Part shown: positions 17,568 to 22,828 of the stretch, piece by piece | How the letters are laid out: each line of letters begins with the position of its first letter | Numbering within the stretch: position 1 is the first letter of the stretch | NCBI GenBank assembly: GCA_965247095.1 | Contig: OZ251997.1 | Span: forward strand, 448,001 to 512,000 | Direction of reading: 5' to 3' | Length of the DNA: 64,000 nt | DNA from: Candidatus Multivorans sp. | GTDB lineage: Bacteria; Acidobacteriota; Thermoanaerobaculia; Multivoradales; Multivoraceae | The notes under the pieces: generated by a model | What the model was told of the DNA's origin: nothing | Seen by the model: only the letters and a program-made list of their open reading frames with translations | Databases searched by the model: none | Made by a program: the position numbers and the translations under genes

Positions 17568-18251
17568 ATGCACCTGATCGTCTTCGACGTCGACGGGACG
17601 CTGGTCGAGTCGGACGAGTTCGATGGGGTCTTGTACGCCCAGGCGGTTCGGGACGTGCTCGACGTCGCGGTTGATGAGGACTGGTCCAGCTACCGGCACG
17701 TCACGGACAGCGGCATTCTGGACGAGATCCTCGATCGGCACGCCCTTGAGATGGACCGCTCCGTTGCCCATGCCTCAGTCAGGAAGGCCTTTGTCGCCCT
17801 GGTCCGCGACTATCTCAGCGATCGTAGTGGTCGACTACCGGAGGTCCCCGGCGCCAGAACCTTCGTGAACCGACTCATCGCGCACCCCGAAGTCACCGTA
17901 GCCGTTGCGACGGGCGGCTGGCGTGAGACCGCGGCGATGAAACTGCAAGCGATCGGCCTCGATCCCGAGGCGCTGCATCTGTCCTCCGCTTCGGATGCCA
18001 TCCGCCGGATCGAGATCATGCAGATTGCGGAGCGACGAGCGATGGCCGGCAAACCAGCCGACCGGAAGTTCTACTTCGGAAACCAGCCGTGGGACAGGGC
18101 AGCGAGTCGGAAGTTGGGTTGGGAGTTCATCGGGATCGGCGAACAGGTTGAGCATGTTCCTCGGTTTGAGGACTTTCTCGACCATGAGTCCATACTTGAG
18201 GTATTGGAGTTACCGCCGGCTTCGGCGCCGGCCCACGATGGGGGGACGTAG
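17568..18251 (+). CDS. HAD-family hydrolase
   Basis: FDVDGTL motif I and ATGG motif II. The motif IV region reads FGNQPWD instead of the usual GDxxxD. Confidence 0.85.
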   Translation: MHLIVFDVDGTLVESDEFDGVLYAQAVRDVLDVAVDEDWSSYRHVTDSGILDEILDRHALEMDRSVAHASVRKAFVALVRDYLSDRSGRLPEVPGARTFVNRLIAHPEVTVAVATGGWRETAAMKLQAIGLDPEALHLSSASDAIRRIEIMQIAERRAMAGKPADRKFYFGNQPWDRAASRKLGWEFIGIGEQVEHVPRFEDFLDHESILEVLELPPASAPAHDGGT

Positions 18252-18335
18252 GGGCCTGGGAAGTTGGTCCCCCTTCCGGTGAGATGGCGCCACTTGGCCA
18301 GGGCGCCTGCGTCACTGGTTTGGCGTGCGGACGCC

Positions 18336-19761
18336 TCAGGCGGCTTGCGGCTGGCGTTGGTCTCGCCTGATGACGCCCAGTCGCTCGCGAGCCACCACGG
18401 CCTCCAGGTGCGGCGGCGGTCGCCACAGGGACTCCATGACATAGCGCAGGTCCATCGGCCTGCCGTCCCAGGTGGGCATGGACTCCTTGCCGGTGACAGA
18501 ACGCCTGCGTCCTCCAGGTGCCGGACGAGCTCCTGGGCGGCGTAGGGGCCATGGACGGCGGCGCCGGGCAGTGCTCAAGCGGCCTGCCGCGACTGTCGAA
18601 GAACTGGGCGGCGCCCTCGTCGTTCATTCGCACGCTGCAGCCGCCTTCGTGGAGCAGGCGGTGGTGCCGCCGGCATAGGAGCACGAGGTTCGAGAGCTTC
18701 GTCTCGCCTCCGTCGGCCCAATGATGGACGTGATGGGCGTCGCAGTGCTGTGAAGTGCAGCCAGGGAAGCGGCAACTGCGGTCGCGGAACTCCAGGGCGC
18801 GCCGGATGGGGGGCGGAATGGTGCGGGTTTTGCGGCCAACGCTCAGGATCTCGCCATTTCGGTGGGTCATGCGCACCCTGCCGGCTTCGCAGGCGATCCG
18901 CCGGACTGTTTCCGCGGAAACAGGGACGCTGGAGGTGCCGAGCCAGGCGCTATGCGAGCAGGCGCCGTTCACCGGCGTTTCCGCGGAAACGCGACCGCCA
19001 CCTGCTTCCGCGGAAGCGCTTCCCGTCTGCGGCGCCGACGGCGTTTCCGCGGAAACGTGCGGCCCGTGGTCGGCGGACGTCGGTTCGGGTGCCTTGAGCT
19101 CTTCCTCGTTCACATGGACGACCACCTGATAACGGTCGCCGCTCTGTCCCGGCTCCAGCCCGCCTGCGAGCGCGCTCTCGGCCACCAGTGTCAGCGCATC
19201 GGCGCGCTGTTTGCCGACAGGCGGGCGGTCGTCGCGGCTCCTGTCGTACAGCTTCTCCCTCGCAGCCTTGAGAGCCTTCATCAGGACCTCGCCGGCCTCA
19301 GGCGCCAGCCGGCCCCGGATCACGAACGTGCCGTTCTCGTCGACGTGCGTCGTCAGGTGACTGGAGGCGTCGCGCAGGTCGTCGTCGTGGGTCTCAATCG
19401 TGCGGTCGATCCTCCGCCATGATCGGACGACTCGCTCGATGTGCGCCGCGGTGCCGGCCTTTCTGAGCTCCACGAGCGACTTCTCGGTGTCGGGCCGGGC
19501 GACGCGGGTCAGCGCCCTGACCTTGGACTACGAGAGTTCGCCTCGCCTCATCGCCTCGCTCAGGAGGGGCAGTTCGCTCAGGGCGCGAGCAACGCGGACC
19601 CGCTCGCGCGAGGCGCTGGGCGCCAGTCCGATGCGCCATGTGAGCCAGTGGGCGCAGGTCAGGAAGCCTTTACTCCAGCCCTCCTGCTCATCGAATCTGC
19701 GGATCAATACGAGGAGTTCGTAGGTCGCGGCGTCGATGCGCGTTGCGAGCGTGGCGATCTC
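18336..19761 (-). pseudogene. DUF222/HNH endonuclease (13E12-repeat-like) pseudogene
   Basis: CAHWLTWRIG and GELS*SKVRALTRVA (in-frame TAG at 19528-19530 where Tyr is expected). HNH core RDRSCRFPGC..CDAHHVHHWADGGETKLSNLVLLCRRHH. Frameshifted C-terminus (PTWDGRPMDL in another frame). 5' end cut by IS3. Confidence 0.88.
18906..19057. repeat. Four perfect palindromes with core TTCCGCGGAA inside the HNH gene
   Basis: 18906-18923 CTGTTTCCGCGGAAACAG; 18975-18992 GCGTTTCCGCGGAAACGC; 19004-19017 GCTTCCGCGGAAGC; 19042-19057 CGTTTCCGCGGAAACG. Confidence 0.95.
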
Positions 19762-19802
19762 TGGAGTTGCCCCGTTTTCGTGGACGGTTTGTGTTTGGAA
19801 AA

Positions 19803-20081
19803 TCAAGCAGCTTCGCGGTAGCTCTTCTCGAAGTTGACGGGTGATCGCTGTCCGATCGCGGAGTGACGACGATGGGTGTTGTACCAGCCCTCGATGTACC
19901 GGAAGAGCTCCGCCTTCGCTTCGGCATGATTCCGAAACCTGGTCCGGTCGAGCAGTTCGCACTCGAGGCTGGCAAAGAAGCTCTCCGCCATGGCGTTGTC
20001 GTAGCAGTCTCCGACGGAGCCCATCGAGAGCGCGATGCCGGCGTCGCGGCAGCGCTTCCCGAAGGTCAGGGAAGTGTACTG
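19803..20081 (-). pseudogene. IS3 orfB transposase, 3' fragment
   Basis: QYTS..SMGSVGDCYDNAMAESFFASLECE..YIEGWYNTHRRHSAIGQRSP. Confidence 0.92.
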
Positions 20082-20170
20082 CTTGGGTTCAAGGGATCGT
20101 CGCAACGCTTGGACGTCCAGGTCCGGTTCCGGTCCTCCTACGGGCGGAGTCTATTGGTTAGCCGTCGCCG

Positions 20171-20348
20171 GGGCTGTGGGAGGTGTGGGAAACGCGGAGG
20201 TCCTCCGGAGCGTTTTCCAAGCGGCTGCGGAAATCGCCTCAGCGATTTCCGAGGGGCCTGTGGGAGAGCTGTGTGAAGCGGGCGGGGGCCCGGGGGCTTT
20301 GCACAGCTCTTCCACCAGACCCGGCAGACGCGACACCTTCCACAGCCC
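20171..20348. other. Multi-stem structured non-coding element (candidate ncRNA or MITE) inside IS30
   Basis: A 15/16-matched closing inverted repeat GGGCTGTGGGAGGTGT / ACACCTTCCACAGCCC encloses three internal hairpins. Confidence 0.65.
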
Positions 20349-20431
20349 TCCGGGACCGGCCGGGCGCATGGATCGAAGGCGTGCTCCCTGGCGGTCAGAT
20401 TCGATTGGAATCCCCGGTCGTTCTCAGCCGC

Positions 20432-21802
20432 CTACGTGTGTACGAGCTCCTCAAAGACTTCGGCAGGCGTTCTCCAGCCGAGTGTCTTGCGGGGTCGGCT
20501 GTTGAGGGCGAGCGCGACCGCGGAGAGGTCGTCGCTGGAGTATCTGACCAGGTCAGTGCCCTTCGGGAAGTACTGGCGTAGCAGCCCATTGGTGTTCTCG
20601 TTGGTGCCCCTCTGCCAGGGGCTTTGCGGATCGCAGAAGTAGATCGCGATTCCGGTGTCGACGCGGAGTTGAGCGTGTTGAGCCATCTCGGCGCCCTGGT
20701 CCCAGGTCAAGGATCGCCGGAGGTGCTCGGGCAGCGTCGTGATCGACGCCGCGATCGCGTCACGGACGGCTTCTGCGCCGTGCCCGGCGAGCGCCGGCCC
20801 GTTCTTCACCCTCGATTCGTTGCCGTGGCCTTCCATACGGGGCAGGTGCAGCAGCATTGTGAAGCGCGTAGTCCGTTCGACGAGGGTGCCGATCGCTGAG
20901 CTCTCGAGCCCGACGATCAGGTCACCTTCCCAGTGGCCCGGTACGGCCCGGTCGCCGGCTTCGGCGGGGCGTTCGCTGATCATGATTCCCGGGGTCACAA
21001 ACTTCTTGCCTGACCTCCGAGTACGCGCACGCGGCACACGTAGCGCTCGCCCGGTTCGCAGGCACGCGACGAGCTCGCGCTTGAGGGCTCCTCGACCTTG
21101 GATGTAGAGCGCTTGGTAGATCGCCTCGTGAGAGATCCGCATCGACTCATCATGAGGAAAATCGATGCGAAGCCGATTCGAGATCTGCTCCGGGCTCCAC
21201 GACTTCGCCCAACGCCGATCCTGGCGGCGACCGTGCCGACGGCCAATCCAACGCACAGCCGGACCGGGTACCGGCTCCCCGTCAGGCCTTGCGATCAAGC
21301 CGGCGAGGCGGTCCTGCACGTACTCACGCAAGGCGTCGTTCGCGGCAAGCTTGGAGACCTTCGGCCGGCTGGCGCGCCGCTCCGCGTGCCACTGGGCAGT
21401 CGTCGCTCGATAGGCGACGCCACCACTTCGAGTCGACGCGTTGCGGCGCAGCTCCCGCGAAATCGTCGACGGTGAACGGCCCATGCGTCGGGCGATTTCA
21501 CGTACCCCAATGTGCTGAGCGTGAAGGATGGCGATCTCTTCCCGCTCGGCCAACGACAGATAACGCCCCGACACTGGAGCCAACGAAATAGGCGGCATTC
21601 CGCCAGCTTCCCTGAACCATCTCGATCCGACTGCCTGCGACACTCCAGCTTCCCGTGCAGCATCCTCGGTGGACGCCCCACGAACGATCGCCTCCCAGAA
21701 GCGGACCCGATCCTCGCGATGCGCTGTCGAGGGACGGCCCGGCGACCACATCTGCCCACGCATCTCACGAATCGCACGCCTACGCTTACCAACTCCCATC
21801 AC
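20432..21802 (-). CDS. IS30-family DDE transposase, apparently intact
   Basis: Motifs: YLSLAEREEI, STISRELRRN, WSPEQIS, ISHEAIY, GHWEGDLI, SLTWDQGAEM, PWQRGTNENTNGLLRQYFPKG. Confidence 0.96.
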   Translation of the reverse strand: MMGVGKRRRAIREMRGQMWSPGRPSTAHREDRVRFWEAIVRGASTEDAAREAGVSQAVGSRWFREAGGMPPISLAPVSGRYLSLAEREEIAILHAQHIGVREIARRMGRSPSTISRELRRNASTRSGGVAYRATTAQWHAERRASRPKVSKLAANDALREYVQDRLAGLIARPDGEPVPGPAVRWIGRRHGRRQDRRWAKSWSPEQISNRLRIDFPHDESMRISHEAIYQALYIQGRGALKRELVACLRTGRALRVPRARTRRSGKKFVTPGIMISERPAEAGDRAVPGHWEGDLIVGLESSAIGTLVERTTRFTMLLHLPRMEGHGNESRVKNGPALAGHGAEAVRDAIAASITTLPEHLRRSLTWDQGAEMAQHAQLRVDTGIAIYFCDPQSPWQRGTNENTNGLLRQYFPKGTDLVRYSSDDLSAVALALNSRPRKTLGWRTPAEVFEELVHT

Positions 21803-21848
21803 GAAACACCTCCATCACGAGATGTTGCGACGACCAGTTGAATCCACC

Positions 21849-22421
21849 CTGGCTGCCTTGATCCGAGTGGTGGATCACGTCCTCGGGTCTCCGCTGGGCG
21901 ATCGCCATCTTCAGCGCGCCGACCACGAGGTCGGTTGCCAGAGACGAATCCATGGCCCAGCCGACGATGCGCCGACTGAACGCGTCAAGGACGATCGCCA
22001 GGTACAGGAAACCGGCAAGGGTCGGCACGTAGGTGATGTCCGCGAGCCACAACCGGTCGGGGCCTTCGGCTGTGAACTCCCTCTCGACGAGGTCCGGCGC
22101 CGGGCGAGCTGACGGGGCGCGGCGCGTCGCCTTCGGCCGCTTGCGGCGGCTGATGCCCGCCAGACCGGACTCTCGCATGAGTCTGGCGACCCGCTTGCGG
22201 CTCACTGGGAACCCCTCGTCAGCCAACTCGGCCTGAATCCTCGGCGCACCGTAGGTCCCGCGGCTGCGTTCGTGGATCGCCCGCACGCGCTCCGCCAGAG
22301 CGCTGTCCGACTTCTCCCTGGCCGACCGCTCTCGCTTCAACCAGGCGTAGTACCCGCTCGTGGAGACCCCGAGCACTCGGGCCATCGTCGTGATCCGGAA
22401 CTCGGCCTGGTGCGCTCTCAT
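21849..22421 (-). pseudogene. IS3 orfB transposase, 5' fragment
   Basis: Motifs: VSTSGYYAW, YGAPRI, WLADITY, LDAFSRRIVGW. Ends at HHSDQGSQ at the IS30 junction. Confidence 0.92.
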
Positions 22422-22726
22422 GAACCTGAAGACCGCTTCGGGCCCGTCTCCCGAGCGAACCAGGCCGTTGCTTTTGCCAGGATCTCCCGCTCCTCGCGCA
22501 ACCGGCGTACCTCCCGGCGCAGACGGCGCAACTCCTGGCGCTCCGCCGTCGTAGTGCCGTCCTGGCGGCGACCTTCGTCGCGGTCCGCCTGGGCCACCCA
22601 GTTACGCATCGACTGTGCTGAAGGCTCGAACTCGCGGGCCAGTTGGTCCGGGCTCCGCCCGGACCGGACCAGATCCACCATCTGCTGCCGGTACTCTGCC
22701 GGGTACCGACTCCTCTTTCTCGACAT
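22418..22726 (-). CDS. IS3 orfA (HTH protein)
   Basis: RYPAEYRQQMV..LAREF..MRNWV..ELRRLRREVRRLREEREILAKATAWFA. GGAGGT SD upstream. Confidence 0.92.
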   Translation of the reverse strand: MSRKRSRYPAEYRQQMVDLVRSGRSPDQLAREFEPSAQSMRNWVAQADRDEGRRQDGTTTAERQELRRLRREVRRLREEREILAKATAWFARETGPKRSSGS

Positions 22727-22780
22727 CGTGGATACCTCCTCCGACAAGGATGTAGTGTCCACGAAACCGGGGCAAGCTCA

Positions 22781-22828
22781 TACCTCCTCTTCCAAAAATG
22801 AGGTGTCCACAAAAAGGGGTCAAGCTCA
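22781..22828 (-). mobile_element. Orphan second IS3 left end, abutting the first
   Basis: TACCTCCT..GTGTCCACAAAAAGGGGTCAAGCTCA is a diverged tandem copy of 22733-22780. Confidence 0.8.

Follow-up and report, generated by a model that had tools for sequence, protein, structure and literature searches.

Insertion sequences (ISs) that take a fixed position in another mobile element as their target are exemplified by IS4321 and IS5075 of the IS1111/IS110 group, which insert in an orientation-specific manner into the terminal inverted repeats (IRs) of the Tn21 family. Tn7 (TnsD/attTn7), homing endonucleases and inteins recognize DNA that is fixed by essential residues, so that their targets are conserved across taxa; Tn7 inserts harmlessly beside the gene it recognizes, and homing elements splice out. 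In IS30 of E. coli, the first helix-turn-helix (HTH) is needed for hot-spot targeting. The transposase of IS30 chooses the target, which includes hot-spot sequences as well as the element's own IRs, and transposition proceeds by copy-out-paste-in via an IR-IR junction (PMC9333248). Here we describe an IS30-family element of 1767 bp (20082–21848) that sits within orfB of an IS3-family element in a 64,000-nucleotide stretch of the genome of Candidatus Multivorans sp. (positions 448,001–512,000 of contig OZ251997.1, assembly GCA_965247095.1; hereafter the window, in whose positions all coordinates are given). Comparison with its relatives indicates that this IS30 lineage very probably picks its target by DNA sequence, preferring the motif of about 25–30 bp around the second catalytic Asp of the IS3 transposase, and inserts there in either orientation with a 3-bp stagger at a Gln codon.

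The element has the architecture of the IS30 family, namely, a single long open reading frame (ORF), an N-terminal HTH, IRs of 23–25 bp and a 3-bp duplication, and is alike to IS30 of E. coli and IS1655 of Neisseria in its family profile, its single-ORF DDE transposase with an N-terminal HTH, its IRs of about 25 bp and its short duplication. It shares with IS4321 and IS5075 the use of a fixed position in another mobile element, but those ISs have a transposase of another class and target the end of the host element, not catalytic codons; unlike the genes recognized by Tn7 and the homing elements, the gene recognized here is part of another selfish element and does not survive the insertion. 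The hot spots of IS30 are described as nearly palindromic natural sequences with a 2-bp duplication (PMC9333248), whereas here the target is a non-palindromic coding motif, the duplication has 3 bp and both orientations occur. Tn5053/Tn402, the so-called res-site hunters, and the ISs that target repetitive extragenic palindromes (REPs) likewise use a conserved, repeated and largely harmless landing site but aim at resolution sites or extragenic palindromes, not at a coding motif of a rival transposase (PMC7765201, PMC1525189). By IR sequence, the closest named relatives are ISLxc3 and ISLxx5 of Leifsonia xyli (1511 bp), which we compared from their printed description: the printed IRs, CTTGGGTTCTAACGGTCGTTGCAACA and GGCGGATTCTAGTGGTCGTTGCAACA, are very near those of the window element; like it, the two elements end in CTT and GGC tips that do not complement each other, and they have an NTG duplication, which corresponds to CAN on the opposite strand (PMC2516522). 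The full-text literature, as far as it was accessible, yielded no description of IS30 elements that target catalytic motifs of IS3 orfB; earlier notice is possible.

The transposase ORF of the window element runs without interruption, contains the HTH_38 (residues 78–121) and rve domains (Pfam) and matches the IS30 model NF033563 with 252.8 bits (cut-off, 80). We assigned the catalytic triad by motif to D294, D368 and E402; the D2-E spacing of 33 fits the family, and the D1-D2 spacing is 73, longer than in the D-(54–61)-D-(33)-E pattern quoted for the family (PMC2516522). The IRs pair over 23 nt with 83% complementarity (20084–20106 with 21824–21846), or over 25 nt counted from the tips, and each end of the element is followed by CTG, that is, CAG, a Gln codon, in the sense of the IS3. 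The surrounding IS3-family element lies on the minus strand at 19762–22780. Its orfB is split into a 5' ORF (21786–22421, minus strand) that reads ...VIHHSDQGSQ/GGFNW... and a 3' ORF (19803–20105, minus strand) that reads ...LEPK/QYTSLTFGK..., where the slash marks the junction, and the IS3 profile NF033516 is matched by the 5' piece over positions 95–286 (227.3 bits; cut-off, 160) and by the 3' piece over 286–369. The split parts the Glu of the DDE triad from its two Asp residues, so that this IS3 copy is inactivated, as the initial annotation of the locus had held. That annotation had also placed the IS30 element in orfB right after HHSDQGSQ and credited it with IRs of about 25 bp, a 3-bp duplication and an intact transposase; the profile halves, the duplicated CAG, the uninterrupted IS3 copies described below, the measured IRs and the 456-aa ORF all agree with this account.

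The IS30 element is present exactly twice in the genome, a single contig of 4.6 Mb, and its copies agree at 1767/1767 bases. The second copy resides in a different IS3, which is 87–88% identical to the IS3 in the window, and both copies occupy the same nucleotide of orfB and are flanked by a duplicated CAG, one of them running with orfB and the other against it. The identity of the IS30 elements, the divergence of their hosts and the opposite orientations together exclude duplication of a composite as well as gene conversion, leaving two independent insertions. Four further orfB sites in this genome are unoccupied, encode ...HHS(D/A)QGSQYTS... and read ...GGCAGC CAR TACAC..., with a single Gln codon; these uninterrupted copies mean that the empty-site state exists in nature. 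An IS30-family match is absent from both same-genus genomes examined (G191 and G201), and the closest relatives (~91% identity, among the best 80 of at least 600 matches) lie in other lineages, which suggests recent horizontal acquisition. A third IS3 copy (L113, G000:C1:1858800–1862600) is interrupted near the start of orfB, at ~1329–2873, by a different element of ~1.5 kb, which has 18-nt inverted repeats and a 423-aa ORF with weak matches to the rve and IS481 models; we rejected this interruption as an IS30 event, given the other position and the other element.

With the transposase as query, a scan that took a single genome from each species confirmed at least 600 stretches, from which we kept the best 80 loci (63–91% amino acid identity). 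These span Acidobacteriota, Actinomycetota, Alpha- and Gammaproteobacteria (including Burkholderiales), Gemmatimonadota, Chloroflexota, Nitrospira and others. The ends of the elements were located by aligning the window IRs, and the flanks were classed by tblastn with the two orfB pieces from the window together with a rule for the junction peptide. IS3 orfB adjoins the element at the HSDxGxQ/Y codon in 48/80 of these foreign homologues, and in 50/82 copies when the two from the Multivorans genome are included. Both halves of orfB abut the element in 26 of the 82, with the IS30 in the same orientation as orfB in 18 and in the opposite orientation in 8; a further 24 are flanked by IS3 sequence on at least one side, the other end being not assessable in five, and several one-side copies show a recognizable Q-Y/F start opposite, below the tblastn threshold. 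In two copies the ends lie beyond the locus, and one of these (L057) still has an N-half of orfB that ends at residue 189, ~50 bp before the transposase. The position is held with precision, in that N-half matches stop at residue 189 or 190, C-half matches begin at residue 1 and the duplication has 3 bp, mostly CAR. The hosts are diverse: 55 N-halves, pooled from these loci and the within-genome copies, fall into 47, 44 and 29 clusters at 95, 80 and 60% identity, respectively, with a median pairwise identity of 46%.

In five genomes that carry multiple copies (3 to ~40 matches each), orfB was found at one or both ends in 17 of 30 sampled copies, three of which repeat loci already counted, and both orientations occur within single genomes. 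No significant overall bias of orientation was seen (22 same versus 14 opposite, p = 0.24; the duplicate filter behind this count also removed L106, which is a distinct copy with the same orientation). The independent annotation of a Streptomyces plasmid lists the same order, that is, an integrase-core fragment, an IS30 transposase and an IS3 transposase fragment, and relatives occur on 153 plasmid records, 35 of them typed as conjugative and 61 as mobilizable, so that the interaction of IS30 with IS3 can travel between hosts. The initial annotation had conjectured that this IS30 subgroup targets the IS3 motif, and had proposed tabulating the flanks of homologues, with insertions at unrelated sites as the contrary outcome. 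The tabulation instead shows enrichment of IS3 orfB, in both copies of the Multivorans genome and in the foreign and multi-copy samples, and the other insertions mimic the same DNA motif.

This mimicry places the recognition at the level of DNA. The consensus of the IS3 sites is CAY CAY TCS GAY CRN GGN NNN [CAR] TAY AC, encoding H-H-S-D-x-G-x-Q/Y. We scored the non-IS3 insertions with a perfect duplication (n = 24) using a matrix made from the IS3 sites over positions -21 to +9; 13/24 ranked in the top 1% and 19/24 in the top 5% of the positions in their own flanks, with look-alike sites such as ...caccacattgacggacgctacCAC and ...cgccactttgatcacgggattCCG. The flanks of the non-IS3 insertions encode unrelated proteins, among them radical SAM, ISL3 transposase, Band 7, TIR-STAND NTPase, GGDEF, MscS and tyrosine integrase. 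A logo built from 31 non-IS3 sites exceeds the 99th percentile of 200 random-site controls at -19C, -17A, -12G, -11A and -8G, and also at duplication bases 1 and 3, +1T, +3 and +5C. The look-alike motif at non-IS3 insertions thus implies that the transposase recognizes DNA, roughly CA-N4-GA-N2-G-N7-CAG/T. The bases read are those that do not vary in the codons for His, Asp, Gly, Gln and Tyr, and the target is not palindromic. We also considered whether the target imitates the IRs of the element itself, comparing the matrix with the left and right repeats (IRL and IRR) at all offsets on both strands, and rejected this, since the match did not surpass that of shuffled columns (0.89 and 0.88 of 500 shuffles did as well); the target is unlike the IRs, so that this is not IR targeting. 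Two pairs of non-IS3 insertions in different genomes (L019 and L025; L042 and L045) have nearly the same target, which for L019 and L025 is a short palindrome, ...cgcccggctYgaccgggcgaccCAG/ta; perhaps the targets are extragenic repeats that resemble the IS3 motif, or perhaps the insertions were inherited.

A related group of IS30-family elements occupies a different position in the same gene. Its transposase (clade 2; the relatives of the window element are clade 1) has 519 aa, is 47% identical to that of the window and matches NF033563 with 286.4 bits. A protein scan yielded 56 loci (L116–L171), mostly from Actinomycetota, of which 41 have at least one assessable end, one of them being the query's own place. 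In 40 of these 41, the element is inserted at the DNA for W-x-T-D-I-T-E-H-x-T/x-E-G-K-L-Y-L-C, just after the first catalytic Asp, and the remaining one, L154, shows a D-I-T-Y variant by eye. Both ends could be assessed at 25 loci: the halves are complementary in 16, the 3-bp duplication is the same at either end in 14, and insertions in the two orientations are represented. In a FastTree phylogeny of 58 transposases (L001, 24 random clade-1 and 20 random clade-2 sequences and all 13 others), clades 1 and 2 (support 99 and 100, respectively) form sister groups (support 93) and ten distant IS30 proteins fall outside, in a tree that is midpoint-rooted, has long branches and carries SH-like (Shimodaira-Hasegawa-like) supports only. 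As a control, we searched the IS30 model in 201 sampled genomes of the phylum of the window, 11 of which had a match. None of 12 distant IS30 copies (28–42% identical to clade 1, from 9 genomes, some with short flanks) had orfB in the flanks; three copies in one genome of the control sample are 90–93% identical to the window transposase and belong to clade 1. The sequence comparisons thus support the extension of the observation to a family-level phenomenon with two target sites in IS3. These IS30 elements were found as hunters of another mobile element in 50/82 copies of clade 1 and 40/41 assessable copies of clade 2, with 44 clade-1 host clusters at 80% identity. In one locus (L072), the IS3 that holds a clade-1 element is interrupted again, ~60 codons upstream, by a second IS30-family element, which belongs to clade 2 (L072:4058–5689).

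Site-selective targeting of the catalytic motif of IS3 is, on this evidence, well supported, and several points weigh against it. As many as 30/82 clade-1 copies have no IS3 flank, three of them not fully assessable, and in the multi-copy genomes 13/30 copies lack orfB, so that the specificity for IS3 is a strong preference and not an absolute rule, with ~40% of clade-1 copies elsewhere. The loci were classed with a single IS3 query and a regular expression, some of the one-side assignments depend on a short peptide motif, and L035, which has an in-frame stop, is doubtful. Copies from the same genome are related to one another, and a good many of the loci stem from metagenome bins. The matrix used to orient the non-IS3 sites was itself derived from IS3 sites, a bias that was controlled only with identically processed random sites. 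The authors who described ISLxc3 and ISLxx5 reported that they had detected no conserved target (PMC2516522). Finally, the argument is drawn throughout from sequence comparison, and the part assigned to the HTH region of the transposase, discussed below, is argued by analogy.

It could be that a degenerate motif, CA-N4-GA-N2-G-N7-CAG-T, merely happens to be commonest in IS3, so that the link is accidental and involves no adaptation to hunting IS3. Under such a scenario, the 30/82 insertions elsewhere, at look-alike sites in ordinary genes, would be expected, as would the failure of the ISLxc3 authors to see a common target (PMC2516522); but the sister clade is found at a different conserved IS3 motif in 40/41 assessable copies, and two accidents in sister lineages are improbable, and the informative positions coincide with the bases that are constant in the codons for His, Asp, Gly, Gln and Tyr, so that we consider this explanation unlikely. 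Near-random insertion, with survivors only in harmless DNA such as other ISs, would fit the fact that nested ISs are common, an unrelated example being the interrupted third IS3 of this very genome (L113). It accounts neither for the single-nucleotide precision and the same 3-bp duplication across at least 44 IS3 hosts nor for motif look-alikes inside ordinary genes at the non-IS3 sites, and strikes us as scarcely credible. Equally hard to credit is the spread of one ancestral composite of IS3 and IS30 by IS3 transposition in trans, gene conversion or vertical descent, even though the interrupted IS3 retains both IRs and orfA, and in some genomes several composites agree in orientation and in the sequence of their 33-bp flanks (L083 and L106). 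The two copies in the Multivorans genome are opposite in orientation, with identical IS30 parts in hosts that differ by 12–13%; both orientations occur overall (22 versus 14); and the hosts are as little as 30% identical over orfB, too diverged for recombination.

If target selection by DNA sequence is the correct reading, the 1767-bp element would be an active or recently active member of its lineage. By analogy with IS30, transposition would proceed by copy-out-paste-in via an IR-IR junction, as described for that element (PMC9333248). Integration itself, as the junctions show, is sequence-selective and involves a 3-bp stagger at the Gln codon, in either orientation, and it splits orfB between the second Asp and the Glu. 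The target may be read by the long N-terminal HTH region of the transposase. The match to NF033563 begins at residue 198 in clade 1 and at residue 226 in clade 2, and the region before it contains, by Pfam, one weak HTH and HTH_38 in clade 1 and two HTH_Tnp_1 stretches and HTH_38 in clade 2. A single-sequence AlphaFold model of the window transposase (mean pLDDT 38.9, with only residues 31–60 above 65) was too poor for use. The selective advantage would lie, much as in the safe harbour conjectured by the initial annotation, in a landing site that is harmless, present in multiple copies and horizontally travelling, and, because the conserved bases of the target are those of catalytic codons, the site cannot easily mutate away. 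In essence, this would be a homing-endonuclease-like logic applied to a rival transposon, with IS3 being abundant, harmless to hit and plasmid-borne.

A bolder interpretation, to which we give slightly less than even weight, is that a monophyletic branch of IS30 consists of specialized hyperparasites of IS3, whose transposases evolved, and at least once re-evolved, recognition of the DNA around a catalytic Asp, the first in one clade and the second in the other. IS3 could then not escape without dying, since the bases read are fixed by its own active site; the hunter would gain a host-harmless landing pad in most bacterial phyla and on plasmids, and would be, in effect, a natural suppressor of IS3 activity. 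Such targeting would amount to a clear instance, extending across phyla, in which bacterial transposable elements of one family prey on those of another at the catalytic codons of the latter, and the sister clades, reading different motifs of one victim gene, would form a natural pair for studying how a DDE transposase reads a long asymmetric target. It would also explain many of the pairs of "IS3 family transposase" pseudogenes that flank IS30 genes in genome annotations, predict where these IS30 elements land and identify substrates for recombination, as at the several loci with mixed N/N or C/C flanks. The IS30 hunters may, moreover, limit the expansion of IS3 in genomes.

The features of the nest are collected in the table.

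Table. Features of the nested insertion and its edges in the window (positions 1 to 64,000)
Feature	Position	Strand	Evidence
DUF222/HNH endonuclease gene remnant, in pieces 18127–19473 and 19528–19761, 5' end cut at the IS3 boundary	18127..19761	-	Pfam
Right terminal IR of the IS3	19762..19785	-	inverted repeat; same ends in other genomic copies
3' part of orfB, from the Tyr of ..Q/YTS.. to the stop; holds the DDE Glu	19803..20078	-	Pfam rve_3, rve_2; NF033516 286–369
Target-site duplication, copy 1 (CTG on the plus strand, Gln codon CAG of orfB)	20079..20081	.	sequence; single CAR at empty sites
IRR of the IS30 element	20082..20106	-	inverted repeat; consensus from 78 homologue IRRs; near the printed IR of ISLxc3
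Non-coding 3' tail of the IS30 element	20107..20431	-	~300 bp longer than in most relatives
IS30-family DDE transposase, 456 aa, intact	20432..21802	-	ORF, Pfam, NF033563, triad
IRL of the IS30 element	21824..21848	-	inverted repeat, homologue alignment
Target-site duplication, copy 2	21849..21851	.	sequence
5' part of orfB, ending ..HHSDQGS(Q); first and second DDE Asp	21852..22421	-	Pfam HTH_21, rve 2–77 of 102; NF033516 95–286
orfA, 114 aa, HTH_Tnp_1, intact	22418..22762	-	ORF, Pfam
Left terminal IR of the IS3	22757..22780	-	inverted repeat
Solo 48-bp left end of another IS3 relative (IR and leader up to the ribosome-binding site), in or next to which the IS3 lies	22781..22828	-	alignment with the left ends of three genomic IS3 copies

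The IS3 has the frame arrangement of its family, with orfA and orfB overlapping via ATGA and an A-AAA-G run upstream, and its IRs (19767–19785 with 22757–22775) pair over 19 nt with 95% complementarity and TG/CA tips. The initial annotation was thus right that the IS3 retains both IRs and orfA; as it proposed, the IS3 might still be moved in trans as a carrier. No target duplication was found at the flanks of the IS3 (atc versus tac), one side of which is the solo end of another IS3; the lack of a 3–4-bp duplication points to a later rearrangement, not to non-membership of the IS3 family. Both DUF222 and HNH are matched within 18127–19473 (Pfam), and profile positions 6–81 of DUF222 correspond to the last 77 residues of ORF 19528–19962, with position 6 exactly at the edge of the IS3. 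The left end of the IS3 adjoins the solo end and not the remainder of the DUF222 gene, and the solo left end outside the left IR, together with the missing duplication, suggests insertion into an older IS3 followed by deletion. Of the three-layer nest proposed earlier, the truncation of the DUF222/HNH gene at the IS3 edge thus stands, and the number of layers does not: the nest has at least four layers and is rearranged. The DUF222/HNH gene is also broken internally at 19473–19528, where two ORFs are parted by a stop, independently of the IS3. The surroundings are of a housekeeping character, with His-, Asp- and Lys/Asn-type tRNA synthetases, FtsY, riboflavin genes, a ClpB-like ATPase and a BamA-type Omp85 protein, and no resistance gene adjoins the nest in the neighbourhood examined.

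Most IS30 homologues have ~1450 bp, and the extra length of the window copy lies in its 3' tail, which in this genome occurs only within the two IS30 copies. The tail contains a degenerate inner remnant of the IRR, directly after the stop codon of the transposase, and a long imperfect hairpin (~20171–20348; fold -119.7 kcal/mol, z = -6.3). A search of the region, including the tail, against Rfam gave no family at the gathering score, and the single sub-threshold match (32.1 versus 43 bits), being inside the transposase gene, was rejected. Likewise rejected was an origin of the tail as a captured piece of IS3 or an independent repeat, as it shows no likeness to other tails except in the IRR and has no further copy in the genome.

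Several loci record further rearrangements around these elements. Three (L052, L055 and L058) have N/N or C/C flanks and belong, with L007, L046 and L049, to a group of copies whose flanks are unlike, consisting of two C-halves, two N-halves, or half of orfB on a single side with unequal triplets. Inversions or deletions through recombination of IS30 copies that reside in different IS3s would produce this pattern. A derivative of 1944 bp (L003:320–2263 and L004:2454–4397; also L182, L186 and L188), whose transposase is 91% identical to that of the window, consists of the IS30, an inner IRR, a stretch of ~455 bp whose beginning is the 3' part of an IS3 orfB, and an additional IRR on the outside; this unit is flanked by 3-bp duplications (CAA and CAC), which implies that a piece of the target was carried off. 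In another locus (L033:4800–5830), a third kind of IS30-like gene (39% identical) lies directly beyond the left end of an IS3 that also holds a clade-1 element.

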